Virus genome (UHGV): UHGV-0042152 | Direction: 5' to 3' (one strand) | From: a virus | DNA length: 27,733 bases | Part shown: in pieces, positions 2,080-23,626 of the stretch | Layout: every line of letters begins with the position of its first letter | Position numbering within the stretch: the stretch's first letter is position 1 | Program-made: the position numbers and the translations under genes | Notes under the pieces: generated by a model | The model's input: only the letters and a program-made list of their open reading frames with translations | Told to the model about the DNA's origin: nothing | Database searches by the model: none

Positions 2080-2083
2080 TCGT

Positions 2084-2506: not shown

Positions 2507-2512
2507 ATCAAA

Positions 2513-3192: not shown

Positions 3193-3202
3193 CAGGTGCT
3201 TT

Positions 3203-3481: not shown

Positions 3482-3492
3482 AGGGTGTTGCA

Positions 3493-3845: not shown

Positions 3846-3935
3846 CAGCACAAATAAAACACACGATTAAATAAGAAAACATGAAAACAATCCGCACTCG
3901 CGGAGGGCTTTGTACATTCAAATAAGGCGGCAACG

Positions 3936-4981: not shown

Positions 4982-4991
4982 GGGCCGCAAC

Positions 4992-5195: not shown

Positions 5196-6022
5196 AGAAA
5201 TTCAGACTCTTTCAGATTCTCCCGCTTTTTGCCGCCATCCTGCTGGTTGGCTGCGATCGCGTTGAGCCAGGTAATGTGGGCATCAAAGTCAACAAGCTGG
5301 GCGACGACAAAGGCGTTGGCGAAGTGGTTGGCGTTGGCCGCTACTGGACTGGCTGGAATACCGAGGTTTACATCTTCCCGACCTTCAAACAAATGAAGAC
5401 CTACGATGACCCGTTCAGCTTCCAGATGAGTGACGGCACAACCATCGGCTATCACATCGGCGTGGCCTACAAGGTCGATCCATCCAAAGTTACCACAGTG
5501 TTTCAGACCTACCGCAAAGGCGTGGACGACATTACCGACACTGACCTGCGCCAGAAGATCGCCGACGCACTCAACCGACTGGCCAGCAAAATGACCACAG
5601 ATAAATTCATCGACGGTGGCAAGTCTGAACTGCTGGATTCAGCACTTAAAGATATTCAGGCAGAAATGACACCCATCGGCATTCAGGTAATGAGCCTCTC
5701 TTATGTCGGTAAACCGGAATACCCACCAACCGTGATCGACAGCATTAATGCCAAAGTCACAGCGAACCAGAAAACCCTGCAACGCGAACAGGAAGTAAAA
5801 CAGCGCGAAGCAGAAGCCAACATGTTGCGCGCAGAAGCTGCCGGACAGGCTGATGCCATTCGTACAAAAGCCCAGGCTGAAGCCGACGCCATTCGTTTAC
5901 GCGGTGAAGCTCTGCGCCAGAATCCCGGCGTTATGGAGCTGGAAGCGATTAACAAATGGAACGGCACGCTACCGCAATACATGACCAGTAACACCGCTGT
6001 TCCGTTTGTTCCGGTGAAGTAA
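5192..6022 (+). CDS. SPFH/band-7 (HflK/C-prohibitin-like) domain lipoprotein
   Basis: N-terminal lipoprotein signal with lipobox LLVGC. Central SPFH-like region followed by an Ala/Glu/Arg/Gln-rich coiled-coil tail (QREQEVKQREAEANMLRAEAAGQADAIRTKAQAEADAIRLRGEALRQ) typical of band-7 proteins. Confidence 0.7.
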   Translation: MKKFRLFQILPLFAAILLVGCDRVEPGNVGIKVNKLGDDKGVGEVVGVGRYWTGWNTEVYIFPTFKQMKTYDDPFSFQMSDGTTIGYHIGVAYKVDPSKVTTVFQTYRKGVDDITDTDLRQKIADALNRLASKMTTDKFIDGGKSELLDSALKDIQAEMTPIGIQVMSLSYVGKPEYPPTVIDSINAKVTANQKTLQREQEVKQREAEANMLRAEAAGQADAIRTKAQAEADAIRLRGEALRQNPGVMELEAINKWNGTLPQYMTSNTAVPFVPVK

Positions 6023-6028
6023 TTAAAC

Positions 6029-6053
6029 CCGGCCAGTGAAAACCGCTGGCCGG
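6029..6053 (+). other. Stem-loop (8-bp stem CCGGCCAG/CTGGCCGG) immediately after the SPFH gene
   Basis: Perfect inverted repeat read in the sequence. No directly adjacent U-run, so possibly a stability element rather than a terminator. Confidence 0.4.
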
Positions 6054-6188
6054 AGCAGTATCAGGATTTTTTAGTATGCCGTTCTCACAAAAAAACCGCT
6101 TGCCATGCCGCAATCAGTCAGGTTACATTTCCGCTGCACCTCATAAAACGGGTGCCGGGATTGGAACCCCGCAGACTAACAGAGCGCA

Positions 6189-6211
6189 CAACCGCGCCAG
6201 CGGTTTTTTTG
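6189..6211 (+). terminator. Candidate rho-independent terminator
   Basis: ACCGC-GCCA-GCGGT hairpin followed by TTTTTTT at 6204-6210. Confidence 0.45.
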
Positions 6212-6389
6212 TGCGTGCCGTATCGCCACGTCTTTTTCGCGTCAGAATTATGGTGGGGCGTACAGGGCCAGCATCAGCTGGGCCGGGTCCTCTGTTAGCC
6301 GGTAGTTCCAACCCTGTACGTCTCACCACCCCGAGCTTGGAACCTCTGGATGGTGAGTTTTCAAAACTAACTAACAGAGAGGCCACATC

Positions 6390-6620
6390 ATGGCAAACCG
6401 CAAACAGCACCGCGCTATCGCGGAGCGTCGTCACATCCAGACTGAAATCAACCGCAGACTTTTCCGCGCATCACGCGTCGCGCAAATCATGCACATCAAT
6501 ATGCTGCATGAGCGCAGCCACGCACTATCAAACATTTATTCCGCCTCTGTTTTCAGCTATCTGGCGGATGATCTGCGCGAGCTTCAGCAGCTCATCCAGC
6601 AGCAAAACAAACTCCATTAA
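6390..6620 (+). CDS. Hypothetical basic protein (76 aa)
   Basis: ORF with AGAGAGG RBS. Arg/His-rich N-terminus. No family recognised. Confidence 0.45.
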   Translation: MANRKQHRAIAERRHIQTEINRRLFRASRVAQIMHINMLHERSHALSNIYSASVFSYLADDLRELQQLIQQQNKLH

Positions 6621-6692
6621 TTCCTGTTCCAGGCCTTTCCTGCACCTTGCGGCGGGAGGCCTTCGCACATCTGTAGCAAGAGGATTGCCGCA

Positions 6693-7058
6693 ATGATTCT
6701 CGCCAACGACTTTCTTGAATACCTGCTCAACACAGAACGTGATCTTGCCGCTCGCGTGCGTGATCGTTATGACATGTACCTGAAATCCCTGCCTGTACCG
6801 CAGCTCGCTGACGGAAAGATTGTTATTGATGGTCGCTACATGATTGACAGCCATGAGGAAAATTACAGGCTTTACCGCATTGAAGGTGGCACCCCGTCCG
6901 TTATTGGCATTTACCAGCGCCCATCCTCTGCAATCGTCGATGTGATTGCCGACAGCATCCGCATCACACATCGCCATGCCGACACAGAAGACACCGTGCT
7001 GGAAATTCAGCGGCTGGCTACAGTCTGCCGCGACACCCTGAATGGCATGACGAAGTAA
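6693..7058 (+). CDS. Hypothetical protein (121 aa) immediately upstream of gpA
   Basis: ORF with AGAGGA RBS, in the position of the small P2 ORFs that precede gene A. Confidence 0.5.
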   Translation: MILANDFLEYLLNTERDLAARVRDRYDMYLKSLPVPQLADGKIVIDGRYMIDSHEENYRLYRIEGGTPSVIGIYQRPSSAIVDVIADSIRITHRHADTEDTVLEIQRLATVCRDTLNGMTK

Positions 7059-7064
7059 ATCACT

Positions 7065-9887
7065 ATGACGGCAGAGTACATCAGGGACTGGCAACAACCG
7101 CGCCACGCAGTGGGTCGTGAAGGAACGGGAATCCCCGCTCCTGAATCCGAGCTTTCCTCCTGGCTGGATGCCTACCGGGCAGAGAACGAGCGCCGCCAGG
7201 AAATGGCTGATGCGGCGTTCTCCGCCACGCCGCTGGGCAACCTGATTAATAAAAGCCTGGACGCACAGGAAAAACAGGACAAAACCATCACACTGGCCAG
7301 AGAAGCCAGAAAACAGGCACGTGGCGCGGTGGATGAAGCCATGGCCTCGCTGCGCCTGCTGCCGTCCTATCTGCGCGATCCGCTTATTCGCCACCTCTCC
7401 TTCCTGCGCAAAAAACAGGAAGCCGATCGCCGGAAAGGCAAAAAGAGCTGGCAGGCGGAACGCTATGCACGCGGAACCCTGCGCAAAATATTCGAACGTC
7501 TGGATCGCACTGACGGACACTGGCTGACACCGGGTTATCGCTCCCTTGCCGGACGCGAACGCCTGGACGATTTGCTTTACCTGCCGCAGCTCAACAAACA
7601 CCAGATACAGACGCTGGCCACCATGACGGCGGCGATGTTCAGCAGCACCTTCGAAAAACTCTGTGATGGCTTTGGTGCCAGAGATGGCGAGCTGACCATG
7701 GATGTAACGCTGAAGGCGTATCAGATGCTGGCCCGCATGGCGTTACACCTGCACATCATGCCTCCACATTATGACGCACTGACAACAGATAAAGACCGGA
7801 GGAACGAACCGGACACGGAGCTGCTGCCGGGCGCAGTCCTTCGCCTGACCTGTGCGGAATGGTGGAAACGCAAACTGTGGCTGTTACGTTGCGAGTGGAG
7901 AGAAGAACAACTCCGCGCCGCCTGTCTGGTTTCCAGAAAAACATCACCCTATCTGAGCCAGGACGCGTTAAGCGAGTTTCGCGCACAGCGCGAGAAAACA
8001 CGCGATTTCCTGAAAAGTTTCATGCTGGAAAACGAAGACGGGTTCACGATTGATCTCGAGACAGTGTATTACGCGGGAGTAAGTAACCCGGTTCACCGTA
8101 AGGCAGAAATGATGGCCACCATGAAGGGGCTGGAACTTCTGGCCGAAGCCCGTGGCGACAAAGCGGTGTTTCTGACTGTCACCTGCCCGTCAAAATACCA
8201 CGCCACAACAGAGAACGGTCATCCGAATCCCAAATGGAACGGGGCCACCATGCGCGACTCCAGCGATTACCTGGTTAACACGTTTTTTGCGGCGGTCCGC
8301 AAAAAACTGAACCGCGACGGTCTTCGCTGGTATGGCATCCGCACGGTGGAGCCTCACCATGACGGCACCGTGCACTGGCATATGATGGTCTTTGCTCATC
8401 CGGAAGAAATCGACAGCATCGTGGCCATCACCCGCGATATTGCCATTCAGGAAGACCGCCACGAGCTGGGCAATGATATTACTCCGCGCTTTAAGGCGGA
8501 GTATGTCGACGGCTCAAAAGGCACACCAACCAGCTATATCGCGACCTACATCGGAAAGAACCTGGACAGCCGCGCCGTGGATGGCATCGACCCGAAAACG
8601 GGCAAGCCACGCGTTGACCACGAAACCGGAAAATCAATGGCCGAGAGTGTGGAGCGCGCCATCGGCTGGGCGCGCCTTCATCGGGTCCGCCAGTTCCAGT
8701 TCTTTGGCATCCCCCCCCGTCAGGTGTGGCGTGAACTGCGCCGCCTTGCCAGCCAGATGGCACGCAACCCGGAAGGCCCGCAACGACTGAAAGATGACGC
8801 AATGGATGCGGTACTCGCTGCCGCCGATGCCGGGTGTTTTGCCACCTACATTGAAAAACAGGGCGGCGTACTTGTTCCACGCAAAGACTACCTGATTCGC
8901 ACCGCCTACGACCTCGCAGATGAGCTGAATGATTACGGCGAACAGAGCGTACAGATTTACGGGATCTGGTCACCACTCATCGGGGAATCCTCCCGTGTGT
9001 GCACGCATCCGGATAACTGGAAACTGGTAAGACGTAAACCGGAAACGGAAGACAGCGCCCGCGAAAATGGTTTTGACCTTCAGGGCGGCCCTGCCGCCCC
9101 TTGGACTCGTGGCAATAACTGTCCCCGTGTACAGGAAACGGACAACAACGGGACAGAACAGCCGGAAGAACGGCCAGCACCGTGGCCGCAGCTTCCTGAC
9201 GGCGTTGACGTGAACGAATGGATGCGCTCACTGAAACGGCACGAACGCCGGGCGCTGATGCGTTCGCTGCGTGACAAACAGGCAAAAAACAGCAGTGATG
9301 AAATGCAGAGCTGGACACAGAGCCGCAAACAGCAGCGGCCTTTGCCTGATAACCACGAATTACTCGCTAAAGAATGGCGGGAATCTGCCGAATCTCTCGG
9401 CCTGCATATCGGTGAACAGCAGATGCAGCACCTGTTACGGGGCGGCAGCCTGTACGTTGACGGCAGCATCATTGCACCGCAGGGATTTGAAATTGTACGC
9501 AAACCGGATACCCGCCCGGACAGCCGAATCACGCAGCTCTGGCAGCGCCTGAGCCGTAATCACGGCGTAAGCAGCACGGAGATCCGCCATAACCCGGTCG
9601 CCAGCTATCTGGAACAGCTGGGGGCATCAGACCCCGAAGCCGCCGCACGTCTGGCATCCACACTTCAGCAGGACCAGAACACCATGACCCCCCCCGTTAC
9701 CGTGCTTTCTGACATGCTGCGCGCCATCCGCGACGCAGAGCACGCACAGAGAATCAGTGAAACCACTGAACGTGCCCGCCGCAAAGCAGACCTGCTGCGG
9801 GGTGGCCTGACCAGTGGAAACAAAAAACAGACAGAAACGGGATTCACAAATCCCGTAAATGAGCAAAAAACGCGCCGCGATATATGA
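7065..9887 (+). CDS. A: Replication initiation protein gpA (rolling-circle HUH endonuclease)
   Basis: Central region matches P2 gpA (VFLTVTCPSKYH..., VEPHHDGTVHWHMMVF HUH motif, YIATYIGKNLD catalytic-Tyr region). 940 aa versus 761 aa in P2, so the ends are diverged or extended. Confidence 0.9.
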   Translation: MTAEYIRDWQQPRHAVGREGTGIPAPESELSSWLDAYRAENERRQEMADAAFSATPLGNLINKSLDAQEKQDKTITLAREARKQARGAVDEAMASLRLLPSYLRDPLIRHLSFLRKKQEADRRKGKKSWQAERYARGTLRKIFERLDRTDGHWLTPGYRSLAGRERLDDLLYLPQLNKHQIQTLATMTAAMFSSTFEKLCDGFGARDGELTMDVTLKAYQMLARMALHLHIMPPHYDALTTDKDRRNEPDTELLPGAVLRLTCAEWWKRKLWLLRCEWREEQLRAACLVSRKTSPYLSQDALSEFRAQREKTRDFLKSFMLENEDGFTIDLETVYYAGVSNPVHRKAEMMATMKGLELLAEARGDKAVFLTVTCPSKYHATTENGHPNPKWNGATMRDSSDYLVNTFFAAVRKKLNRDGLRWYGIRTVEPHHDGTVHWHMMVFAHPEEIDSIVAITRDIAIQEDRHELGNDITPRFKAEYVDGSKGTPTSYIATYIGKNLDSRAVDGIDPKTGKPRVDHETGKSMAESVERAIGWARLHRVRQFQFFGIPPRQVWRELRRLASQMARNPEGPQRLKDDAMDAVLAAADAGCFATYIEKQGGVLVPRKDYLIRTAYDLADELNDYGEQSVQIYGIWSPLIGESSRVCTHPDNWKLVRRKPETEDSARENGFDLQGGPAAPWTRGNNCPRVQETDNNGTEQPEERPAPWPQLPDGVDVNEWMRSLKRHERRALMRSLRDKQAKNSSDEMQSWTQSRKQQRPLPDNHELLAKEWRESAESLGLHIGEQQMQHLLRGGSLYVDGSIIAPQGFEIVRKPDTRPDSRITQLWQRLSRNHGVSSTEIRHNPVASYLEQLGASDPEAAARLASTLQQDQNTMTPPVTVLSDMLRAIRDAEHAQRISETTERARRKADLLRGGLTSGNKKQTETGFTNPVNEQKTRRDI

Positions 9888-9933
9888 AGCGCACACAAAA
9901 CAGGCAAAAACGGGATTTCAGAATCCCGTAAAC
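9821..9933. repeat. Two ~40-bp imperfect direct repeats, each with an ACGGGATT-N4-AATCCCGT palindrome
   Basis: Copy 1 at 9821-9860 lies inside the last codons of gpA; copy 2 at 9893-9933 lies in the gpA-parM intergenic region. Palindrome cores at 9837-9856 and 9910-9929. Confidence 0.55.
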
Positions 9934-9963
9934 GATTAATTAATCAACATAAGGAAAAGCGAC

Positions 9964-10923
9964 ATGAAAATTTGTATCGACGACGGCTCCACCAACATCA
10001 AGCTGGCATGGACTGAGAATGGCGAACGCCGCAACGCCATCAGCCCGAACAGCTTCAAGTCGGAATGGTCTGCGCCGTTCGGTGGCATGCAGCCCGCGAA
10101 CTACATGCTTGATGGCGTGCGCTATGGTTTTGATCCGGTTAGCGATCGCTTTGTCCAGACGACCGACACGCAATACCAGTACAGCGATGTGAATGTAATC
10201 GCCATTCATCACGCGCTGGTCAAATCAGGCATCACGCCACAGGAGGTGGATGTGGTTGTCACCCTGCCACTGAGCGAGTATTTCGACACAAACGCACAGC
10301 CGGACATGGCCAACATCAACCGCAAAAAAGCGAACGTTATGCGCCCGGTGGAGTACCAGAACGGCGAAGCATTCACTATCCGTAACGTGCGGGTTATGCC
10401 TGAATCCATTCCGGCTGGCTTTAAGGCACTGGCTGACATGAGTCCGTTTGAATCCCTGCTGATTGTGGATTTAGGCGGAACCACGCTGGATGTGGCAAAG
10501 GTTCAGGGACAACTGGCAGGTATCAGCCAGGTGCTTTGCGATCCACACGTAGGCGTTTCCCTGATGGCCGATGCCGTACTGTCGGTGATGGCCACTAACG
10601 GTATGCGTACCAGTCACCACATCGCCAATACCATTATCGAACATCGCCATGATGAAGCCTGGCTGCGCCAGCACATCCACAATGACGCGCATTACGCCAG
10701 CCTGATGGCGGTTATTCGTGAAAAGGAAGAAACACTGAAACAACGCGTGATCCGCGCGCTGGCGGGTTTTTCGGGTTACGGGCGGGTGATGGTTGTCGGT
10801 GGCGGGGCAGAGATTGTGGCACCCGCTATCCGCGAAGCCTGCGGAGTTAATGCGACTTTCATCGCGGACGGGGTGCCACAGTTTGCTCTGGTTAATGGGC
10901 TGTACGCAATGGACAAGGAGTAA
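9964..10923 (+). CDS. parM: ParM/StbA-family actin-like segregation ATPase
   Basis: Strong similarity along the whole protein to plasmid R1 ParM as recalled (IDDGSTNIKL, ISPNSFK-EW, QYSDVNV-A-HHAL, VMPESIPAG, DLGGTTLD, GVSL, GGGAE, LVNG-Y). AAGGAAAAG RBS. Confidence 0.85.
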   Translation: MKICIDDGSTNIKLAWTENGERRNAISPNSFKSEWSAPFGGMQPANYMLDGVRYGFDPVSDRFVQTTDTQYQYSDVNVIAIHHALVKSGITPQEVDVVVTLPLSEYFDTNAQPDMANINRKKANVMRPVEYQNGEAFTIRNVRVMPESIPAGFKALADMSPFESLLIVDLGGTTLDVAKVQGQLAGISQVLCDPHVGVSLMADAVLSVMATNGMRTSHHIANTIIEHRHDEAWLRQHIHNDAHYASLMAVIREKEETLKQRVIRALAGFSGYGRVMVVGGGAEIVAPAIREACGVNATFIADGVPQFALVNGLYAMDKE

Positions 10924-10927
10924 ACCA

Positions 10928-11239
10928 ATGACGACACCAACCAGACGGATAAGTTTCTATCTGAAGCCCGCCGCCGTCAAGAACGAAGGCGAAGCATGCG
11001 CCTGGCTGGACAGCCTTACACCAGAAGCCCGCAAAAGTGGTCAACGCGTGGCTTTTCTGGCCGGGCTGGCACTACTGAAAATGAATCCGGCAGAGGCTTA
11101 CCGACTGGCTGCATGGGCTGATGATGAGGCGTTATCAATGACACAAACCAGGACAGAACGCCCCGCGTCACAGCCAGTATCAGCCGCACAGATAACCAGT
11201 CAGATGGCCGGAAATATCCGGGCGTTATTTCCCGAATAA
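10928..11239 (+). CDS. parR: ParR-like adaptor/centromere-binding protein (putative)
   Basis: Directly downstream of parM with an AAGGAG RBS. N-terminal region (RRISFYLKP...RVAFLAGLALLKMNP) resembles the R1 ParR N-terminus as recalled. Size is appropriate. Confidence 0.55.
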   Translation: MTTPTRRISFYLKPAAVKNEGEACAWLDSLTPEARKSGQRVAFLAGLALLKMNPAEAYRLAAWADDEALSMTQTRTERPASQPVSAAQITSQMAGNIRALFPE

Positions 11240-11244
11240 CACAA

Positions 11245-11268
11245 CATCAGGGCGCATCCGCCCTGATG
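11245..11268 (+). other. Perfect 10-bp-arm palindrome (CATCAGGGCG-CATC-CGCCCTGATG) just after the parR stop
   Basis: Read directly in the sequence. No U-tract follows, so more likely a protein-binding or RNA-processing site than an intrinsic terminator. Confidence 0.4.
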
Positions 11269-11302
11269 ACTTTAACCCGGGAGCATAAACAAGGGGGACA
11301 CA

Positions 11303-11635
11303 ATGCAACACATTGACAGAGAAAAAGCGCAGCGACTGATTGAGCGGATGGAAGCGCTGGCGAAAGAAGAAAATGTCAACATCCAAAAAATAGCTGAATG
11401 TGGCCAGATAGTTCTTCGTCGTGAAAAAGACCTCAAACAACTGATGTCTGGCGAAACCAGCAAAACATGGACTTCAGGCGAGAAGACGGTTTATTGCAGC
11501 TTCTGCAATAAATCCCAGTACGAAGTCACAAAGGTGATTGCCGGACCGTCTGTTTACATCTGCAATGAGTGCGTGGATTTGTGCAATGAAATTATCAGGA
11601 AAGAAGTGACAGACAAAAAGGAAAAAAACGCATGA
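11303..11635 (+). CDS. Stand-alone ClpX-type C4 zinc-binding domain protein (110 aa)
   Basis: C-terminal half [38 protein letters not shown] is near-identical in pattern to the N-terminal zinc-binding domain of ClpX (C-x2-C...C-x2-C). No AAA+ module follows. The N-terminal ~55 aa are coiled-coil-like. AGGGGGA RBS. Confidence 0.7.
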
Positions 11636-11946
11636 ACAGAAAACAGAAACAAGAGTTGAAATACTTCTTACGTAAAGAAATTGCCAGGCTTGAAGATGCA
11701 GAGTCACAATCATCAGAAATTCCGTTCGGAATGGATATCAACGACGCCCGTATGCTCCAGGCATACCGCATAGCTCAGGCTGCACTACAGGCAAAACCGT
11801 CAGATGGACTGGTTAGAGCGGTGCGTTTCTATGAACAGGTAAAGCGTGAGAATCCGCCAGTCGAAACCGGAGCATGGAAAGACGCTGTTGACTGGGTGCT
11901 CAAAGAGGCTTACCAGGCTGTAAACATTGGTACCAAAGGAGATTGA
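11632..11946 (+). CDS. Hypothetical protein (104 aa)
   Basis: Translationally coupled to the upstream gene (ATGA overlap at 11632). No motif recognised. Confidence 0.5.
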
Positions 11947-11947
11947 T

Positions 11948-12388
11948 ATGACCACTTTTACCGACAAAGAACTGATTAAAGAAATCAAAGAGCGCATAGG
12001 CAGCCTGGACGTCCGAGACAATATTGAGCGTCGGGCTTATGAAATTGCTCTGGCATCGCTGGAAGCAGAGGCAGTTATGTTCTGTATATCAGGACAAAAT
12101 GTAGATTCAGAAGAACATGTATCAACCAGCAAAGCGGTTGTTGATGCCTGGGTTGAAGAATGGAATCAGGTTGACGGAAGTCCTGGCGAACCACTGTACA
12201 AAACTATGCCACTCTACTATCACGCTGCCTTGCCAGCGCCGGTAGTGCCGGAAGAAGCAACTCCGGAAAACGTAGAAATGCTCTCTGGCTATGTTTCCAC
12301 GTACAAATTAACCGATAGCGAGCGCGATATTGCTGCCGAAATATGGAACGCCTGCCGCGCCGCTATGCTTCATGGGAAAGGAGAGTGA
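11948..12388 (+). CDS. Hypothetical protein (146 aa)
   Basis: ATG at 11948 with an AAAGGAG RBS. Previous stop is 2 nt upstream. No motif recognised. Confidence 0.5.
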   Translation: MTTFTDKELIKEIKERIGSLDVRDNIERRAYEIALASLEAEAVMFCISGQNVDSEEHVSTSKAVVDAWVEEWNQVDGSPGEPLYKTMPLYYHAALPAPVVPEEATPENVEMLSGYVSTYKLTDSERDIAAEIWNACRAAMLHGKGE

Positions 12389-12389
12389 T

Positions 12390-12653
12390 ATGGCAACTTT
12401 GACAAAAAAAGAACAAGCATGGTTGAGCGAATTACAGGACGTTCTTGATCGCTGTCCATCACCGAAAAAAATTGGTTTTTACACCATTGGCGATAAAAGC
12501 ATTTACCTGTATGACCTACGCCGCATGGATGAAATCATGGAGGCTCTTGATAATCGTTCGTCAATGGATTGGTGTGTTGCTGTCCATGATATGAATGCAG
12601 GGTTTGATGAAAAGATTTTGTTCCCCTCATCAGTTGAAAGCACAGCAGGATAA
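12390..12653 (+). CDS. Hypothetical protein (87 aa)
   Basis: ATG at 12390 with an AAAGGAGAG RBS. Tightly packed after the upstream gene. Confidence 0.5.
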   Translation: MATLTKKEQAWLSELQDVLDRCPSPKKIGFYTIGDKSIYLYDLRRMDEIMEALDNRSSMDWCVAVHDMNAGFDEKILFPSSVESTAG

Positions 12654-12686
12654 GGACCCAGCAAATATACACAACCTATAAAACAC

Positions 12687-12714
12687 TAAAGCGCCTCAGG
12701 GGCGCTTTTTGTTT
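12687..12714 (+). terminator. Rho-independent terminator ending the parM-to-small-ORF operon
   Basis: AAGCGCC-TCAG-GGGCGCTT hairpin followed by TTTTTGTTT. Confidence 0.65.
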
Positions 12715-12817
12715 GCACAAAAGTGCACAAATTTGCACAATTTTTTTGAACGACTTTTTACCCTTCCGGCCCGCATGGCGGCTGGATCCGTCAAGGATCC
12801 GTGCGTGCACAAAAAAA
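12711..12817. promoter_or_regulatory. Repeat-rich non-coding region (phased TGCACAA repeats and duplicated GGATCCGT)
   Basis: TGCACAA at 12714, 12724, 12734 (10-bp phasing) and again at 12807. GGATCCGT at 12784 and 12795 (11-bp spacing). Function unknown. Confidence 0.35.
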
Positions 12818-13104
12818 CGCGCTTTTTCTGCGCGCAGGTGACGGGGGAACAGCCCGCGTTTCAGGGGGTAAATAGCATTCCCTGAACGATGTCGCAGAGA
12901 CACAACAGAATGGCCATATTTCTCACGCTGAGCATGAAAAAGGCGTGAGGGCTTTTGATTTGATGGGGTGAAAGGTAAGGCCGTCAAAATCGCACTGAGG
13001 CAGCGAGAACATGCAGTCAACGCGGTGGAATTGCGTAAGAGTCTGACCGTCGATGGTGGCGATAAACTGGAAGGCGTCGTGAAATTATCTGATTGATACA
13101 GGAG

Positions 13105-13236
13105 NNNNNNNNNNNNNNNNNNNNNNNNNNNNNNNNNNNNNNNNNNNNNNNNNNNNNNNNNNNNNNNNNNNNNNNNNNNNNNNNNNNNNNNNNNNNNNNN
13201 NNNNNNNNNNNNNNNNNNNNNNNNNNNNNNNNNNNN
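13105..13236. other. Run of N (masked or unsequenced, 132 nt)
   Basis: Literal n characters in the sequence. Confidence 1.
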
Positions 13237-13343
13237 GGCGGGGCGAAGCAGCAGACAAGCGAAGCGCGTCAGCGATACGGCACCTTGCCGACCATACTTC
13301 ATAAGTGCAAAATACGAGCAAAGAAATCAATGGAGGCTGTCTT

Positions 13344-13880
13344 ATGGTCATTAATTACAAGCAGTTAAGAGAAAAACGGGAGCAGGTAAAGGAGAGCTTT
13401 CGCCGCAATGAAGATCTGACCCCGCTTGTACGCCTTGCCCAGGGCATTGTTGATGCTTATGAAATCTCGCTGGAGCTGCCATCACAGACCTGGACAGATA
13501 GCGACGGTAATCGCCAGCATTACGTTTCATGCGGACTGGAAGCAGCCGAAGGATTTCGCAGAATGCCTTTATCCCAGATCCCTGCCGCTACCCCCAAAGC
13601 ACGGGGCAGCAATGATGAGCGAAAACTGACTTTTAGTATTGAAACGGTGGTTGACGACACACCTGGCGAAGTCGCGTTCGTGCACACTCCTGTTTCGATC
13701 GCAATGTATAACGATGAAATACAGGTTCGCGTTAATAATAATATCGTGCCACTTAAAGAAGGTAATTCACCCTACACCACCGTTTGTGAAGCCATTCAAT
13801 ATTACGTTCTCTCTGAAATTGATAATCTCAAGCCTGACGGCACCCAGAAAGGTCATGCACAACGCGTACCCGTGAAAACC
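13344..13880 (+). CDS. Hypothetical protein, 3' end hidden by N-run (at least 179 aa)
   Basis: ATG at 13344 with a GGAGG RBS 6 nt upstream. Continuous reading frame to the N-run at 13881. Occupies the position adjacent to cos/portal where P2 carries old. Confidence 0.4.
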
Positions 13881-13968
13881 NNNNNNNNNNNNNNNNNNNN
13901 NNNNNNNNNNNNNNNNNNNNNNNNNNNNNNNNNNNNNNNNNNNNNNNNNNNNNNNNNNNNNNNNNNNN
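13881..13968. other. Run of N (88 nt) at the expected position of the cos site
   Basis: Literal n characters. In P2 the cohesive-end site lies immediately beyond the 3' end of portal gene Q, which here ends at 13974. Confidence 1.
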
Positions 13969-13973
13969 CCCCA

Positions 13974-15020
13974 TCACGGGGCTGTTTTTTCATCAAGAAG
14001 AGCATAAGAGTTAAAACGGATCACCTCTTCGCCAAGCCAGTCATTGATGTGCTTCATAGCCTCCATAACGGGCATCAGCTCGTTAATTGCGTAAACCCGC
14101 GCTGCCTTCTCCACATCGCCAAACGCACTTTTTTCGCCCGGCATCGCCCCCATCAGTTGCGGCGGAACGCGGTGCGCAGCCAGCACATCATCACGGGATG
14201 CCGCCTTAACATTCATGAATTCATCTTTTGCGGTGATCTGCTGGAACGGCAAAATTTGCACCCCCTCTTTGCCCCCGTTGGGCGCATGAATGAGCACGTT
14301 TTTAAACGCACCACCACCACGTGCCCCCTGTAGCGTTTCTTTCAGGGAGTCCATGCTTTCGCGGTTTACCTGCGCTGCACCGATGTAGATGATGCACCCG
14401 GCGTGGGATCCGTTGTCGTAGTACAGTTTTCTGAACATGTCCGCCGAATGAGAAAGGCTGGCCGAGAGTAATGCGCCAAGATATTCCGGCATGCCGTAGA
14501 TTTCCTGGTTAATATCCGGATTCATCAGGTGGCACACTTTGCCAGGACGAAACTGAAACGCGTCCTTGCCATCCTGCACATACCACCATGATTCAAGATC
14601 GCTTCCGCGTCGCATGTATTTCGCCAGGGCGTGCCGTAATTTAAGCGGTTCGCCGAGCATATTGCTTCGAAGCTCAAGGAATGCGTTACCGAACACAAAC
14701 CAGTCCAGCGCCAGCGCCGAGAAATCCTGCCGGGAAAGCAGCGGGTGCGGGATGTAGCAACCGAGTAATACATTGCGCTTAAAGTAAAGCGCAGACTGAT
14801 GCCAGGACGTTTGCCGGGCTGCTCTTGCCAGACCGTACCAGTCCACCGGGGTTTCATACCACCGCCCGTTATCAGCACAGTACATATTGTCCAGCAGGTC
14901 ATGCCCGGTCAGGCGATAAGGACCATCAAATGTGAATGCACTGAGCGATGATTCTTTCCTGAGCGCATCAGCGAGATCAATGCGTGAACTCATGCGCACT
15001 TTTTTATTTTTTCTGCTCAT
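13974..15020 (-). CDS. Q: Portal protein gpQ
   Basis: 348 aa (P2 Q is about 344 aa). Minus strand, immediately downstream of and overlapping terminase gene P, as in P2. Confidence 0.85.
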   Translation of the reverse strand: MSRKNKKVRMSSRIDLADALRKESSLSAFTFDGPYRLTGHDLLDNMYCADNGRWYETPVDWYGLARAARQTSWHQSALYFKRNVLLGCYIPHPLLSRQDFSALALDWFVFGNAFLELRSNMLGEPLKLRHALAKYMRRGSDLESWWYVQDGKDAFQFRPGKVCHLMNPDINQEIYGMPEYLGALLSASLSHSADMFRKLYYDNGSHAGCIIYIGAAQVNRESMDSLKETLQGARGGGAFKNVLIHAPNGGKEGVQILPFQQITAKDEFMNVKAASRDDVLAAHRVPPQLMGAMPGEKSAFGDVEKAARVYAINELMPVMEAMKHINDWLGEEVIRFNSYALLDEKTAP

Positions 15021-16771
15021 CAGAACTCCATAACCGTGAAACGCTCGTTTTCTCCTTCGCCGCCAATTGGTTCGTTAATGACAGCAAGCATGGTTGCCCA
15101 CGCAAGGTCGCCGTGGCTGATCCCCCTCGCGCGGTCCGTTTCGTAAGTGATAAAGCCGCCCGGTGTTTTCACCTTACGCACGGCGTTAAAGGCTGCGACC
15201 AGCTCGCGTTCGGCGCGATCGTATTCCCACCGCCCGGCACGCATTATTTGCAGCATTTTCAGTACCAGCGACCGTTTTGATGACAGCGTGAAGGTGTACG
15301 GAATAGCAGCAGGGAAAAACCGTTTCACTATCTGATAAACAGCCTCCCCGTTCCCGCCTGTCACATCAATGCCGATGTGTTCCACGTTGTAGCGACACGT
15401 GAACTCTTCAATGACTCTGGCCTGTTCTTCAAACTCCAGCCCCTGAACGCGTCGCGTCTCCACCGTTCGAAAACGGCCTCCAGGAACAGCCGGAGGAACC
15501 ACCACGGACACAGCGCCGCTGTCGCCGTTTCCACTGCTGCCGTTTGCGTCATACCCAATCCATACCGGACGATTCCCCATCGGGCGGGGAGCAAAAGGTT
15601 TCCAGTCTTTCCAGTCGTCGTATCCGTCAACACCACAGCCAATCAGGATATTCAGGTTAAATGCCGATTCCCCTTCGCGGACAAACTCACACATATAGAG
15701 ATTGAGGAACTCGTCTTCGGTGTTTTCATCACGAATTTCATCAATATCGGTGTGTTTCCAGCCGTGATTAACCACATCTTCCAGCGTGACAATTTGCCGC
15801 CACGTCCGGTCAGGGCAGATAAGCCCGTTATGCAGCGTTTTCCAGTCCACAGAAAAACGCTGGCGTTTATGCGAGGCCTTTTTCTCGTTCCAGCGGTCGC
15901 CGTTCCAGTAGGCGTATGCCTCGTGCGTTTCGGTGGATGGCGTGGAGAAGTAGGTGCGCCGCAGTCCGCTGAGGGTTGCCATAGCGCCAGCCACCTTGCG
16001 CAGTTCAGCAAAGCGACTGACCCAGAAAAATTCATCAAAATAAAAATTGCCCGTGTAGGACTGTGCCGTCGCAGCAGAAGTACCAAGAAAATGCAGCTCT
16101 GCGCCGTTGGAGAGGATGATTTTATCGCCCCCTTTCAGCTCCACATCAACTTCAGATGCAGCCTCCTGAATAATGCTTTTAAACTGGAACGCCTGACGAC
16201 GCGACGCAGACAAAAAAATCTGGTTACGCTGGTAAGGTTGCGCCACATCGTCACGCAGCGCCATCAGCAGTGCTTCCTGAGCAAAATACCAGGTCGCCCC
16301 AATCTGTCGGGATTTCAGGATCATCCTGTTACGTATCCCGGCTTCCCTGCAAAGGGTCAGGGAGTCAAACCAGCCCCGCTGATGCCACTCCAGCCTGCTG
16401 ATGATTTTTTCCCGCAGTGCGGCAATCTGTTCCGGCGTGAAATGATTTTTGAGTTTTTTCGCCCGGCCTTTCTTTCCTGTGGCCGTCGCATCCGGCTGGC
16501 CATCATGCAGTTTTTTAAGCTGCCGGGTCAGCAGGTCTATTTCCTTAAAGTCACCGCCTGTTTTATTCTGTTTTTCAGTAAGCTGGATGAGGCGCGCATC
16601 GATGGACTGCGTGACACGCTGCACGGGTGGCGTTTCATCCCACTGGTCGCGTTTTTTCCACGCATAAATCGTGTTCGGGTTTATTCCCATCAGACGTGAT
16701 ATTTCTGCGGGCGGATAACCCTGCCAGTAAAGTTGCCGCGCACGCTGGCGCACAAAAGCGTCCTGAATCAT
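15020..16771 (-). CDS. P: Terminase large (ATPase) subunit gpP
   Basis: 583 aa (P2 P is about 590 aa). N-terminal HTH-like region then ATPase and nuclease regions. GGGGGAG RBS. Divergent from O, as in P2. Confidence 0.9.
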   Translation of the reverse strand: MIQDAFVRQRARQLYWQGYPPAEISRLMGINPNTIYAWKKRDQWDETPPVQRVTQSIDARLIQLTEKQNKTGGDFKEIDLLTRQLKKLHDGQPDATATGKKGRAKKLKNHFTPEQIAALREKIISRLEWHQRGWFDSLTLCREAGIRNRMILKSRQIGATWYFAQEALLMALRDDVAQPYQRNQIFLSASRRQAFQFKSIIQEAASEVDVELKGGDKIILSNGAELHFLGTSAATAQSYTGNFYFDEFFWVSRFAELRKVAGAMATLSGLRRTYFSTPSTETHEAYAYWNGDRWNEKKASHKRQRFSVDWKTLHNGLICPDRTWRQIVTLEDVVNHGWKHTDIDEIRDENTEDEFLNLYMCEFVREGESAFNLNILIGCGVDGYDDWKDWKPFAPRPMGNRPVWIGYDANGSSGNGDSGAVSVVVPPAVPGGRFRTVETRRVQGLEFEEQARVIEEFTCRYNVEHIGIDVTGGNGEAVYQIVKRFFPAAIPYTFTLSSKRSLVLKMLQIMRAGRWEYDRAERELVAAFNAVRKVKTPGGFITYETDRARGISHGDLAWATMLAVINEPIGGEGENERFTVMEF

Positions 16772-16925
16772 TGCTCCCCCTGAGTAATTACAGGAAGATT
16801 ACCCGCGCGCGAAACCGTTCTCCTTAACCCCCTGCTCTGACTGTTTTCTTACAACAAAAGCCCTTTGTATCTGCCTGTTACGCTTTGCCATCATGACTGA
16901 AGAACCAGTCAGAGGGGCAAAAACT
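16772..16925. promoter_or_regulatory. Divergent late promoter region (P-Q leftward, O-N-M-L rightward)
   Basis: Intergenic region between divergent P and O, where P2 has its Ogr-dependent PP and PO promoters. A canonical TGT-N12-ACA element could not be confirmed by eye. Confidence 0.4.
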
Positions 16926-17762
16926 ATGGCTAATGAAAAAAAGACATCCCGCAAAAAGTTTCGCGTGGCTGTCTCCGGTGTAACGGCAGACGGGCGCGAA
17001 ATCAACGGCGACATGCTGAAAGCTGCCGCCACCAGTTATAACCCGTCCGTTTATGGTGCACGTGTGAATATTGAGCACATCCTGTCACCACTCCCCGGTA
17101 GCGAGTTTTCCGCTATGGGCGATGTTGTGGGGTTGAGCACCGAAGACATAACCGATGGTCCGCTGGCAGGCCGCACGGCACTGTATGCCGAAATTGAGCC
17201 GACCACTCGCATGATGTCCCTGCTTAACGATGGTAAAAAAATTTACTCCAGTATTGAGCTGGAACCACAGTCAACCATCACGGGAGGCCCTTACCTGCGC
17301 GGGCTGGCAATGACCGACACCCCCGCCAGCCTGGGCACGGAACGTCTGGCCTTTGCGGCACAACAACGTATGCAACTGATGACATTCAACTGTCAGCAGG
17401 GAGAGGTGGCGATGTTCACCGCCGCTATGGAGTCGGAACTCATCGAACTCACCGAACATCGTCAGGAAGAAGGCACCCAGTGGTTTAACCGCGTTATGGG
17501 GATTATTGGCCGTGGCCGCAAAGCGGATGACGCCAGTTTCTCCCGTATTCAGGAAGCGGTGGAAGGTGTCGCAACGTCACAGGCCGACATTATCGACCGT
17601 TTTAATGCACTGGAAACCCGCCATCAGCAGGACAGCCAGAAAATCACGTCACTGACCACAGAGCTGACAACACTGAAGGAAAAGCTGTGCACGCAGGACG
17701 GCGATCCGCAGAACCGGTTCACCGCAACGGGCGCAGCCTCCGACCAGCTGGCTGACTTCTGA
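16926..17762 (+). CDS. O: Capsid scaffolding protein gpO
   Basis: Matches P2 gpO as recalled (FR-AV-G-T-DGR-I...YGAR-N-EH...GLA-TD-PASLGTE). Start placed at the ATG at 16926 with a GAGGGG RBS rather than the upstream ATG at 16893. Confidence 0.85.
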   Translation: MANEKKTSRKKFRVAVSGVTADGREINGDMLKAAATSYNPSVYGARVNIEHILSPLPGSEFSAMGDVVGLSTEDITDGPLAGRTALYAEIEPTTRMMSLLNDGKKIYSSIELEPQSTITGGPYLRGLAMTDTPASLGTERLAFAAQQRMQLMTFNCQQGEVAMFTAAMESELIELTEHRQEEGTQWFNRVMGIIGRGRKADDASFSRIQEAVEGVATSQADIIDRFNALETRHQQDSQKITSLTTELTTLKEKLCTQDGDPQNRFTATGAASDQLADF

Positions 17763-17785
17763 TAAGACAAAGGAGCAAATTTTTT

Positions 17786-18838
17786 ATGAATCTGGTGATG
17801 TCAGATAATGCCCGTAACAAGCTGGGCCGCTACATGACGCGACAGGCATCGATTAACAATATCCCGGTTTCTGGACTGGTATCGCGATTTACCGTGGAAC
17901 CCTCGGTGCAGCAGCGTTTTGAAAACGCCTCAAAGGAAAGTACCGAATTTACGAAAAGAATTAACGTGATCGGCGTGACCGACCAGAAAGGCGAAAAAAT
18001 CCTCCTGGACACCACCGGGCCAATTGCGCGCACGAATAGCAGTTATGACGGCATCAAACGCCGTAACCCGAATAACGTGATCGATATGAAGTCTCGTCAG
18101 TACCAGTGCGAACAGGTGAACTACGATACCTTTATTTCGTACCCACAGCTTGATACCTGGGCGGCCCACAGCGATTTTCAGTCCCGTATCAGTACACAGA
18201 TCGCCCGGCAGGTAGCGCTTGATCGCATCATGATTGGCTTTAACGGCACATCCCACGCCTACGAGTCTGATTTTCACACCAACAAGCTGCTTCAGGACGT
18301 TAACGTGGGCTGGCTGGAGCACATCAGAACCGATGCCAGCGAGCGCGTAATGAATGACGTGACGCTGACCTCCCGCAACATGGACAACACTGTGGCGCAC
18401 GTGGGTAAGTATGCGAATGCCGATGCTCTGGTACAGGATGCGCGCTCATCCCTGCTGGATGAATGGCACAAGGAAGCTGACGACCTCGCGGTGATTATGG
18501 GGCGCAACCTGTTTAACTCGCTGCGTCTGCCCGTGCTGAACAGCATCAGCGGCCAGAATCCCAATGCGGAATTACTTGCCGGGCAGCTCATCCTGTCATC
18601 GCGCACCATTGGCGGGCTGGGCGTGTTCCTTGCGCCGTTCTTCCCGGATGCAACGATGCTTATCACCTCGTTCAACAACCTGTCGATTTACTGGCAGAAA
18701 GGTTCAATGCGTCGCCTGATGAAAGACGAGCCGGAATACAACCGCATCGCCACCTACCAGTCCATCAATGACGCTTATGTCGTTGAAGACTATGGCAAGT
18801 GCGCGATGATCACTGGCCTGAAGTTCGCCGACAGCTAA
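17786..18838 (+). CDS. N: Major capsid protein gpN
   Basis: 350 aa (P2 N is 357 aa). Follows O with an AAAGGAG RBS, in the P2 O-N-M-L position. Confidence 0.85.
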   Translation: MNLVMSDNARNKLGRYMTRQASINNIPVSGLVSRFTVEPSVQQRFENASKESTEFTKRINVIGVTDQKGEKILLDTTGPIARTNSSYDGIKRRNPNNVIDMKSRQYQCEQVNYDTFISYPQLDTWAAHSDFQSRISTQIARQVALDRIMIGFNGTSHAYESDFHTNKLLQDVNVGWLEHIRTDASERVMNDVTLTSRNMDNTVAHVGKYANADALVQDARSSLLDEWHKEADDLAVIMGRNLFNSLRLPVLNSISGQNPNAELLAGQLILSSRTIGGLGVFLAPFFPDATMLITSFNNLSIYWQKGSMRRLMKDEPEYNRIATYQSINDAYVVEDYGKCAMITGLKFADS

Positions 18839-18847
18839 TCAACTCAC

Positions 18848-18866
18848 GGCGGGCATCATGCCCGCC
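18848..18866 (+). other. Stem-loop (GGCGGGCA-TCA-TGCCCGCC) between N and M
   Basis: Perfect 8-bp GC-rich inverted repeat immediately after the capsid gene stop. No U-run follows. Confidence 0.4.
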
Positions 18867-18883
18867 TGTAACGGAGAGAAAAA

Positions 18884-19684
18884 ATGATTACTCCTGCACA
18901 ACAACACTGGCAGAACGTGATGGCACAGCGCGCAGGCCGGGCGAATGAAGGTGTGGACCACGCCGCGCGTACCGCGCATGAAGAGGTGCTGTATCGTCTG
19001 CGTCTGGCACAGGCCCGGCTTAAGGGCGTACAGGCCAGAAGCGCGAAAGCCGCCATCAAAAAAGAGTTGTTGCCGGACTTTTCCGGCTGGATTGAGGGAA
19101 CGCTGGAGGCTGACGGCGGGCAGCAGGACGAAGTGATTGCCACGCTGATGGTGTGGGCGATTGACTGCGGCGATCTTCCGCTGGCGCTGCGTATTGGTGC
19201 ATATGTGGTCCGTCACAACCTCATCATGCCGGATAACTTTGGACGTACTGCCGCCACGGTACTGACCGAAGAAATCTGCAACCCGGTACTGACGCAGGCC
19301 GGGACGGATGCCGACGCGGATTTATCCGCCTTTATCGAACCACTGGACACACTTTGGGAAATTGTCGCCAACCAGGATATGCCGGACGAAGTGCGCGCCA
19401 AATTATGCAAGGCGTGCGCCTTTGCCCGCCGTGGCCTGAGCGATGCGGACAGCATGGCCTCATCACTGAAGCTGCTGCGCGAAGCGATGCATCTGAACCC
19501 GAACGCAGGTGTGAAACGCGAGATTGCAACCCTTTCCCGCGCCCTGAAAAAAGCTGATTCCGGAGCCGCACCAGAAGATGCCAGCACACCGCAGGCGCAG
19601 GACGAAAGCAGCAAAAGTAAAAAGACAACGCGGAAGCCTGCAACACGAAAAACCACCGCGACGCAGAAGGCAAAGCGCGGTTAA
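18884..19684 (+). CDS. M: Terminase small (endonuclease) subunit gpM
   Basis: Position after N, with GGAGAG RBS. Size (266 aa, P2 M is 247 aa) and basic C-terminal tail fit gpM. Confidence 0.8.
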   Translation: MITPAQQHWQNVMAQRAGRANEGVDHAARTAHEEVLYRLRLAQARLKGVQARSAKAAIKKELLPDFSGWIEGTLEADGGQQDEVIATLMVWAIDCGDLPLALRIGAYVVRHNLIMPDNFGRTAATVLTEEICNPVLTQAGTDADADLSAFIEPLDTLWEIVANQDMPDEVRAKLCKACAFARRGLSDADSMASSLKLLREAMHLNPNAGVKREIATLSRALKKADSGAAPEDASTPQAQDESSKSKKTTRKPATRKTTATQKAKRG

Positions 19685-19785
19685 CGACTGACCCCGTCAG
19701 CGGGCGGCGTGCGCGGTGTTCCGGTTTGACTCCGTGACCGTTTACACCGCACACCCACCGCCCGATTTTTTCAGGAGTGAACCCC

Positions 19786-20280
19786 ATGAGTATGGTTGCC
19801 AGAACCAACCCCGGCCCCGCAGAGGACGACATCACCGATACCGATGATGGTGATACCCGTATTTCAGCGGGTGCATTCTGGCCGGATATTGTGCTGCGTG
19901 AGCTGCGTCTGGCGGTACGACTGCCGGGCCGCGTGACCACCTCCCGCCTGCTGCATACCGCCACCGGGGCCATAGCACACGTTACCCGCGAGCTGGAAGC
20001 ATGGCAGCAGGAACAACAGGCGGCTGGCTATCAGACGCTGGCCGATGTTCCGGCCCCTGTAATTAACGGAGAAAGCGTCAATCTCTGGCACTGGCGCAAT
20101 GCTGTTTATACCGCCACACGCGCCCTGATTCTGGAGCGTTACCGCGATGCGGACACAACGGACAAGGGCGACCGCCGGGCGGACGCACTGGATATACAGA
20201 CATCGGATTTGTGGCGCGATGTGAGCTGGGCCATCTCTGACATTCTGGGACGACCGCGAATGTTTGCGGAGCTGTGCTGA
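19786..20280 (+). CDS. L: Head completion/stabilisation protein gpL
   Basis: Position after M. About 164 aa (P2 L is 169 aa). ATG at 19786 with an AGGAG RBS 8 nt upstream. Confidence 0.75.
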   Translation: MSMVARTNPGPAEDDITDTDDGDTRISAGAFWPDIVLRELRLAVRLPGRVTTSRLLHTATGAIAHVTRELEAWQQEQQAAGYQTLADVPAPVINGESVNLWHWRNAVYTATRALILERYRDADTTDKGDRRADALDIQTSDLWRDVSWAISDILGRPRMFAELC

Positions 20281-20480
20281 TGAAAGTGAAGGCACTGGAA
20301 GGCGACACCGTGGATTCGCTCTGTTTCCGGTACTACGGCACGACACAGGGCGTCACCGAAAAGGTGCTGGATGCCAACCCCGGACTCTGTCAGCAGGTAT
20401 TTCTGGACGCCGGGCAGGAAGTGGAGATGCCGGAGCCGGAGAAGAAGAAACGAGAAATGATTCAGTTGTGGGGGGAGTAG
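20280..20480 (+). CDS. X: Tail protein gpX (LysM-like)
   Basis: MKVKALEGDTVDSLCFRYYGTTQGVTEKVLDANPGL matches P2 gpX as recalled (M-K-ALQGDTLD-IC-RYYGRT-G-VE-VL-ANPGL). 66 aa. Confidence 0.8.
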   Translation: MKVKALEGDTVDSLCFRYYGTTQGVTEKVLDANPGLCQQVFLDAGQEVEMPEPEKKKREMIQLWGE

Positions 20481-20482
20481 CA

Positions 20483-20806
20483 GTGAGCACCATTCAAACA
20501 GGGATCACAGAGCAGGTTATTGCGTGGCTCTTTGACCACCTGCCAACGGTGTATGCAGTAGGCGCGGCGGTCAGCATTTCCGCGCTGATGAGTCTTTATG
20601 ACGGACGAACACTGGTTCAGACCGTAACGGGATCGCTGGCGTGCGGCGTTCTTGCCATGGCCGTGGCCGGGTCGCTGCGCTTCTTCGGGATCCCTGAGGA
20701 TGCAGTGACGTTTTTTGGTGCCTCAATCGGTTTTATGGGCGCAGAGAAAGCACGCGACAAGGTTATTGCAATATTTGATCGCAGGGTGAAGGAGAGGAAC
20801 GAATGA
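20483..20806 (+). CDS. Holin (putative, GTG start)
   Basis: Position of P2 Y. Hydrophobic segments (VIAWLFDHL, VYAVGAAVSISALM, LACGVLAMAVAG) with a charged C-terminus. GGGGGA RBS before the GTG at 20483. Confidence 0.55.
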   Translation: MSTIQTGITEQVIAWLFDHLPTVYAVGAAVSISALMSLYDGRTLVQTVTGSLACGVLAMAVAGSLRFFGIPEDAVTFFGASIGFMGAEKARDKVIAIFDRRVKERNE

Positions 20807-21195
20807 GCAACACATTTAAATTCAGCAGCCGGAGCGAAAAGAATTTGCAGGGTGTAAATCCTGATCTGGTGAAAGTGACCCGACGGGCGCTGGAAATCTC
20901 GGAAGTGGATTTTGGTATCACCGAAGGATTGCGCAGTCGTTATCGTCAGAAGCAGCTCGTGACCACAGGCAAGAGCCAGACCATGAACAGTCGCCATCTC
21001 ACAGGGCATGCCGTGGATGTTGTGGCTTATGTCGGCAACCAGGTGTCATGGGAATGGCCGCTGTACGAAAAAATCGCAGCAGCATTCAGACAGGCCAGCC
21101 AGGAACTGAATATTCCGGTGGAATGGGGCGGCGACTGGAAGACCCTGAAAGACGGACCGCATTTTCAGTTACCACACGGAGCCTATCCGGCATGA
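20803..21195 (+). CDS. Endolysin, peptidase M15 (VanY/L-alanyl-D-glutamate peptidase-like)
   Basis: SRHLTGHAVDV and downstream D/H residues fit the zinc-binding pattern of M15 peptidases. Follows the holin with an AAGGAGAGG RBS. This is not the P2 K lysozyme type. Confidence 0.7.
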   Translation: MSNTFKFSSRSEKNLQGVNPDLVKVTRRALEISEVDFGITEGLRSRYRQKQLVTTGKSQTMNSRHLTGHAVDVVAYVGNQVSWEWPLYEKIAAAFRQASQELNIPVEWGGDWKTLKDGPHFQLPHGAYPA

Positions 21196-23603: not shown

Positions 23604-23626
23604 GGAAGAGCAGGAGAGCAAAACAG

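Follow-up and report, generated by a model that had tools for sequence, protein, structure and literature searches.

Probable assembly gaps flank a common accessory gene beside the portal gene of a P88-type prophage of Escherichia coli

Introduction

What lies beneath two runs of masked bases beside the portal gene of a P2-like phage, and what is the gene caught between them? The question is raised by UHGV virus genome UHGV-0042152, a stretch of 27,733 nucleotides (nt) that was analysed at its full length and is referred to here as the window. It contains exactly two runs of N, of 132 and 88 nt, and the 644 readable bases between them carry an open reading frame (ORF) that continues uninterrupted to the edge of the second run. 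The ORF is located between gpA (7065-9887) and gpQ, which is the cos-proximal locus known as a hotspot of P2-like phages and the place where P2 itself has old and tin (Rousset et al. 2022, PMC9122126); the same locus is rich in anti-phage systems (PMC9122126; PMC13586616). The original prediction, made from the letters of the window alone, read the N-runs as hiding 132 and 88 nt, placed a P2-type cohesive-end site (cos) under the second of them, and described the ORF as a protein of at least 179 amino acids (aa) in the slot of the P2 Old nuclease, with its 3' end and terminator concealed.

The current study offers a simpler answer. Taken as a whole, our explanation is that the window holds an ordinary P88-type prophage interrupted by assembly gaps, that its ORF is a moron, and that cos is situated elsewhere, and we assign this explanation a rough probability of 0.78. 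The ORF is in fact already known, being a common and catalogued phage accessory gene of a known hotspot, and the remainder is most likely an assembly blemish.

Results

The sequence beneath the N-runs

The window represents a P2-like prophage of E. coli belonging to the P88 type (Xuanwuvirus, Peduoviridae). A very close relative is the prophage in E. coli MS 198-1 (NZ_CP146687.1; prophage locus L001), which has the same gene order. Ungapped alignment to NZ_CP146687.1 yields 100% identity over window positions 1-13104 and again over 13242-13850, while 13969-27733 aligns with 2 mismatches. PhiR44_2, vB_EcoM-569R5 and vB_EcoM-705R2 match the window at 98.9-100% as well and encode a 174-aa ORF in the same place. 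When compared with these P88-type relatives, it is the two N-runs, the odd bases at 13237-13241 and a 30-nt piece of the host gene gapC that are found in the window only (Table 1).

The unmasked sequence could be recovered from the relatives, and the ORF completed with it. At the two gap sites, extended by their aberrant edges, the relatives have 33 and 27 nt, which contradicts the notion that 132 and 88 nt are hidden there; the gap regions exceed the L001 spacing by 104 nt at the first site and by 91 nt at the second. The second N-run does abut the portal gene, as had been noted, ending 5 nt from its stop codon. However, what the unmasked relative carries at that site is not a cos, but rather the final five ORF codons, the stop codon that ends them and the left arm of a terminator. 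Ten other genomic contexts, retrieved by exact matching of the 42-aa protein whose gene immediately precedes the ORF, are alike in this respect, with 143 nt separating the 42-aa ORF from the start of the 174-aa ORF and 14 nt separating the stop of the latter from the portal stop. The best-matching complete genomes agree with this spacing as well. Both the 3' end and the terminator, far from being out of reach, are legible in hundreds of genomes. Among 5,426 complete E. coli genomes, the best matches to the 644-base inter-gap piece span its bases 6-614, and none of these genomes aligns beyond the inner gap edges.

Each of the two sites coincides with a strong hairpin. At the first site, there is a perfect 13-bp stem (-31.6 kcal/mol, z = -7.2), the right arm of which continues into the sequence that matches the relatives again. 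This hairpin is not a canonical terminator, because it lacks a T-run. The palindrome itself measures ~29 nt (GCCGGGGCATAAA/TTTATGCCCCGGC) and occupies positions 14812-14842 of L001; it is likewise found at positions 345-375 of locus L003 in P884B11, a phage without the ORF. Located just 5' of the point at which the ORF is inserted, it might be bound by a protein or mark a boundary of recombination, instead of acting as a terminator. The hairpin at the second site is a bidirectional terminator. A terminator scan detects it on the minus strand (L001 15491-15471), and the plus-strand fold has an energy of -19.9 kcal/mol (z = -5.6). We also observed that the portal stop codon (13974-13976) falls within the loop of this terminator, which is common to the portal gene and the 174-aa ORF convergent to it, so that a hairpin arm also encodes the final portal codons.

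N lengths that differ from the relatives, erroneous flanking bases and breaks at hairpins are the features by which a gap artefact is recognized, and all three were found here. The N-runs are therefore most likely assembly or scaffolding gaps at two strong hairpins. Their lengths would then be estimates, each ~100 nt too long, rather than counts of hidden bases, and the 644-nt piece between them would have unreliable ends, with 5 wrong bases on its left and 30 bases of host gapC on its right, the latter presumably recruited via an 18-nt partial similarity. The true order is that of the relative, in which the conserved small ORF is followed by the 13-bp palindromic hairpin, a leader of 102 nt, the 174-aa ORF, the shared terminator and gpQ.

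Table 1. Features at and around the two N-runs, in coordinates of the window.
Feature	Position	Strand	Remarks
Core of conserved noncoding block, probable cos region	12714..12855	+	three TGCACA repeats (12714-12739), ACCCTTCCGGCCC, GTGCACAAAAAA, invariant GCGCAGGTGACGGGGGAACAGCCC
Small conserved ORF (42 aa, GTG start)	12968..13096	+	ends 8 nt short of N-run 1
N-run 1	13105..13236	.	with the 5-nt edge (137 nt in total) corresponds to 33 nt, CTGGAGAGCCGGGGCATAAATTTTTTATGCCCC, in the MS 198-1 prophage
Odd edge GGCGG	13237..13241	.	matched by no relative; relatives have GCCCC; BLAST alignment to L001 resumes at 13242
Authentic codons 1-169 of the 174-aa protein	13344..13850	+	100% identical to L001 14941-15447
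Foreign segment GGTCATGCACAACGCGTACCCGTGAAAACC	13851..13880	+	30 nt, exact match to E. coli gapC, codons GHAQRVPVKT
N-run 2	13881..13968	.	with the preceding 30 nt (118 nt in total) corresponds to 27 nt, ATGGTTCAACTCTGGTAAAAAGGACAG, in relatives
Bidirectional terminator, visible right part	13969..13990	.	ACAGCCCC-ATCAC-GGGGCTGT plus T-run; common to the ORF and the Q-P operon
Portal gene (gpQ homologue, 348 aa)	13974..15020	-	WP_000087814.1, phage portal protein

The gapC segment

The last ten codons of the ORF as it is read in the window are not of phage origin. They match gapC, which encodes a type I glyceraldehyde-3-phosphate dehydrogenase and resides between cybB and aldA in E. coli. The segment continues the phage ORF in frame, and the two meet at a shared GAAA microhomology (CAGAAA on the phage side followed by GGTCATGCAC), and the probability of such an exact 4-nt overlap at the junction is ~0.0065. 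Similarity to gapC extends further upstream, as the 18 nt located 5' of the junction agree with it at 14/18 positions with at most one gap, for which we estimate p ~5e-5. We also considered whether the ORF might be truly homologous to the dehydrogenase, and this was rejected: identity is limited to the 30 nt past the junction, the upstream codons share only the short microhomology, and the ORF has no Pfam match.

The phage-gapC junction was found neither in the complete E. coli genomes, nor in viral_contigs (searched with a 30-mer), nor in genome_contigs, which comprises species-representative genomes, or metagenome_contigs (both searched with a 39-mer). Similarly, no protein in a 5.8-billion-cluster database has the GHAQ tail and no homologue carries it. 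The predicted minimum of 179 aa consequently includes ten residues of gapC, and the true product has 174 aa. Since the junction is homology-guided, occurs only once, and sits at the end of an N-flanked piece bounded by hairpins, we read it as a mis-extended contig end. A mis-recruited read, an extension added by a gap-filler, or a template-switch chimera might each have produced it.

The 174-aa protein and its family

The ATG of the ORF at 13344 stands seven nt after GGAGG (13332-13336), which bears out the strong ribosome-binding site described earlier, and no stop codon interrupts the frame over the 179 codons that precede the second N-run. Some gene callers use an in-frame GTG further upstream, at 13305, which gives a product of 187 aa in 4/10 of the contexts. 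The ATG at 13344 and the product of 174 aa are preferred, because the family alignment and the GGAGG site support this start. The full protein is WP_000236495.1, which is annotated as "hypothetical protein" and has the C-terminal end KPDGTQKMVQLW. Minus-strand ORFs of 55-88 aa also exist within 13237-13880; none received support.

As originally predicted, the protein exhibits no recognisable motif, in that searches of Pfam, NCBIfam and PADLOC returned nothing significant. Profile searches were nonetheless productive in one respect, since it matches the hidden Markov model of the family phrog_5091 over its full length (E = 1.4e-67, residues 1-168 against profile positions 1-164 of 164). When 1.84 billion representatives were searched with a profile, 89 proteins were recovered at E <= 0.001, each of them the representative of a 50%-identity cluster and most of them ~155-175 aa in length. 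Common to this wider family are the motifs MxITYxDI, YxxSLxLPxxxWxDxxGxxxxYV, FxIxTVxDDxPxGG and EVCxxIKxxV, and its N-terminus, MxI(N/T)Y, is conserved. A sequence search of the PDB with the family profile gave no match, nor did 49 family members show any convincing match to Pfam.

Structure prediction confidently suggests that the protein folds as a two-layer alpha/beta sandwich, for which no convincing counterpart was found in the PDB; the structural matches obtained (Z 4.8-7.0) share only the general architecture of helices layered on an antiparallel sheet. The protein is probably cytoplasmic, because no signal peptide, transmembrane segment or catalytic motif was predicted.

Distribution and genomic contexts

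The ORF is present in 690 of the 5,426 complete E. coli genomes (~13%), and its close homologues are restricted to E. coli, Salmonella and Trabulsiella. Among phages that are otherwise collinear, it is a matter of presence or absence: PhiR44_2, 569R5 and 705R2 carry it, whereas P88 and P884B11 do not, and in the latter two the palindromic hairpin is followed directly by gpQ. Distant members of the family occupy a variety of positions. Baseplate modules house them in other myoviruses; a lambdoid prophage has one with the lysis cassette on one side and the terminase on the other, another P2-like prophage has one after ogr and beside hicAB, and a further one precedes a lysis cassette. The gene is alone in a phage accessory slot in each of the four contexts that are informative, and no conserved partner gene was apparent across five family contexts, one of which is a contig too short to tell. 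The 174-aa ORF thus behaves like a moron, i.e. an optional and self-contained phage gene. By eye, only a weak promoter-like sequence (TTGCCG-N17-CAAAAT) can be made out upstream of it, and a terminator is present downstream.

It is evident that the gene has been catalogued before. Table S5 of PMC9122126 lists WP_000236495 as "hypothetical" 167 times, in ordered gpA-gpQ arrangements in which it comes last, next to gpQ. The arrangement reported with it is the same as that of the window, namely StbA, Plasmid_stab_B, zf-C4_ClpX and hypotheticals. Because the accession appears only in the locus table, the 174-aa ORF is not among the systems tested in that study, and our literature search found no paper that names WP_000236495 in its main text.

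The probable location of cos

If cos is not beneath the second N-run, a better place for it can be proposed. A noncoding block at ~12690-13104 is common to all P88-type phages, whatever cargo lies to its left. Its core (Table 1), in which GTGCACA forms a fourth repeat, is conserved in them at 92-100%. Within the A-Q interval, this core is the sole portion that recurs in Enterobacter phage phiT5282H (Novemvirus), where gpA and the portal gene are ~446 nt apart with no cargo between them, and it is the one noncoding block there to be conserved across genera. Moreover, the linear record LR595891.1 (P88_4B11) is broken at the position corresponding to window 12758/12759, and among the sibling records of its series three P2-like ones begin exactly at P2 cosL. 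Judging from this pattern of conservation and linearisation, cos would most likely be found within the conserved block at ~12714-12855, 250-390 nt upstream of N-run 1. Owing to insertion of the moron between the two, the block and the Q stop are separated by ~1.1-1.2 kb in the window.

Direct searches for a cos of the P2 type were negative. With up to 3 mismatches allowed, the 19-nt sequence GGCGAGGCGGGGAAAGCAC was found neither in the window nor in the unmasked L001, and when the A-Q interval was compared by BLAST with the 460-nt cos region of P2, chance-level words alone were returned. A 13/19 match to P2 cosN at 12837-12855, within the invariant 24-mer, was set aside as only a lead, with ~6.6 such matches expected by chance in the window. 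In the literature, we found no published cos for P88 or Xuanwuvirus.

The old and tin genes of P2 are flanked by gpA on one side and cos on the other, and the interval that leads from cos to the Q stop, 187 nt in length, contains only a terminator and no gene. If cos of the P88-type phages is in the conserved block, the 174-aa ORF would lie between cos and gpQ, i.e. in a slot that is empty in P2 and on the opposite side of cos from old. The original assignment to the slot of Old accordingly holds insofar as both genes belong to the variable gpA-gpQ interval, but under the same condition it does not hold for the side of cos, with the ORF on the Q side and old on the A side.

Other features of the prophage

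The prophage has genes for an integrase, a C-like repressor and Cox, followed by gpA, a ParM/StbA partition pair and several small genes; gpQ, gpP, gpO, gpN and gpM come after the N-run region and are succeeded by lysis and tail genes. The 42-aa ORF listed in Table 1 is annotated in P884B11, P88 and PhiR44_2; the exact protein was found in 152 blocks of the collection index. Within the early region, window 5192-6022 encodes an SPFH-domain protein (276 aa) with no PADLOC match. The partition pair, ParM/StbA and Plasmid_stab_B, is situated directly 3' of gpA at 9964-11239 and has no PADLOC match either. A partition system occurs in ~1/4 of P2-like phages, for which plasmid-like maintenance has been suggested (Rousset et al. 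2022, PMC9122126).

Two further observations concern the cargo on the A side of the hotspot. Firstly, 11303-11635 encodes a protein of 110 aa, of which residues 60-108, in the C-terminal half, match the N-terminal zinc-binding domain of ClpX only (E = 1e-13), with no ATPase part. Standing alone, such a zinc-finger domain could compete for the adaptors or substrates of ClpX or serve as a decoy for them. Secondly, 12300-12656 is 95-97% identical to DNA located beside ea22-like genes of lambdoid and other unrelated coliphages (e.g. vB_EcoS-689R5 and Salmonella VSe13), a likeness at the sequence level that points to a recent exchange of cargo between phage families on this side of the hotspot.

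Elsewhere in the window, 21726-23603 encodes a protein of 625 aa (RefSeq DUF6645), with the lysis genes (lysC) on one side and the tail-completion genes on the other, a position at which P2 is without such a gene. The protein has no NCBIfam or PADLOC match, and its gene may represent a further accessory insertion. Across the aligned segments, the window departs from the MS 198-1 prophage by two substitutions only; they are in the tail-fibre gene, at 27501 and 27504, 3 nt apart, and a divergent repeat copy follows them at 27660-27733.

Discussion

Several considerations count against our explanation and should be stated together. Firstly, the excesses at the two sites are both ~100 nt (104 and 91), which would suit two true insertions of about that size as well, and illegitimate recombination in the strain itself could equally yield a microhomology-guided junction. 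Secondly, the first hairpin is without the T-run that its counterpart at the second site possesses. Thirdly, the position of cos rests on conservation and on the linearisation point of one record, and two other sibling records of the same series start ~20 nt from P2 cosL, so the linearisation convention is not exact. Lastly, a scan at its threshold found no sigma-70 promoter upstream of the ORF, and the homology searches point to no particular function of the 174-aa protein.

With respect to function, our suggestion is a tentative one. By analogy, the 174-aa protein might act in inter-phage conflict, whether in exclusion, defence or counter-defence, through stoichiometric binding to another protein, a guess modelled on other cargo of the A-Q hotspot. 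That phrog_5091 together with ~89 clusters constitutes a new single-protein, binding-type factor for phage exclusion or counter-defence is a proposition that we regard as somewhat doubtful. Equally doubtful, in our judgment, is the converse view that the ORF has no part in conflict, being either a neutral or decaying passenger or else a structural or regulatory helper of its own phage. Such a view would account for the failure of the protein to match any defence model and for its absence from the systems tested in PMC9122126, and a helper role would suit those relatives that reside within baseplate modules. A decaying passenger is nevertheless difficult to reconcile with the presence of invariant or near-invariant residues across 89 clusters and a confidently predicted fold; conservation on this scale, together with the fold, indicates that the family is under selection. 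Similarly, the position of the gene varies between phages and it is dispensable in P88 and P884B11, both of which argue against a core role in the virion or in replication.

A different possibility is that the N-runs stand over true sequence, in which case two insertions of ~100 nt would flank the ORF and one of them would begin with a captured fragment of gapC that alters and lengthens the C-terminus of the protein. In its favor, a homology-guided and in-frame junction is precisely what microhomology-mediated recombination or template switching would give in vivo, and the similar size of the two excesses has already been mentioned. Despite this, we consider the scenario improbable. In none of the 690 ORF-carrying complete E. 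coli genomes does the alignment continue beyond base 614 of the query, the viral, genome and metagenome collections searched all lack the junction, and the GHAQ tail recurs in no homologue. Both sites are on hairpins, which are typical break points of assemblies, and with only 2 bases differing from L001 outside the gap region, there is little room for two independent rearrangements. A true microhomology-mediated capture of host coding sequence at the gapC junction is less likely, in our view, than the conflict role suggested above for the protein. As for a P2-type cos beneath the second N-run, with the ORF as the positional counterpart of old, this scenario draws on the P2 arrangement, in which cos is 187 nt beyond the Q stop and old is in the same A-Q interval, but it can be dismissed as exceedingly improbable given that the 27 nt found there in the relative are fully explained by coding sequence and terminator, that both the mismatch-tolerant search and BLAST of the P2 cos region failed, that phages without the ORF keep the conserved block upstream, and that a protein of 174 aa with no ATPase or TOPRIM match is a poor counterpart to Old with its ~586 aa.

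Returning to the explanation by assembly gaps, two implications follow for the reading of such records. N-runs should not be taken as hidden biology of the stated length, and the sequence adjacent to a gap can be foreign. A third implication concerns the gene itself. The occupant of the Q-side slot belongs to a widespread and confidently folded family, which makes it a candidate for phage-challenge screening of the type already used on this hotspot.

When the locus is compared with known systems, both parallels and distinctions are evident. The probable cos block of the P88-type phages is between A and Q, as is the cos of P2, 186 and P4. The right end of P2, with its TGCAT repeats and GC-rich core, even loosely resembles the TGCA(C/T) motifs of the block, a resemblance read by eye rather than a tested homology. 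The block is otherwise unlike P2 cos and appears to split the A-Q hotspot into an A-side slot and a Q-side slot. Whereas PMC9122126 treats the A-Q interval as one locus, the ORF appears here on the Q side of the probable cos block, apart from the main cargo on the A side. The ORF is distinct from Old and Tin as well. P2 Old is an ATPase-TOPRIM nuclease, and members of the OLD family combine an N-terminal ABC-type ATPase with a C-terminal TOPRIM domain in ~586 aa; neither these domains nor this size was found in the 174-aa ORF, which is also encoded on the strand opposite to old and tin and bears no likeness to the product of either in sequence, domains or size. What the ORF has in common with old and tin of P2 is its standing, as each of them is non-essential cargo carried between A and Q by a P2-like phage.
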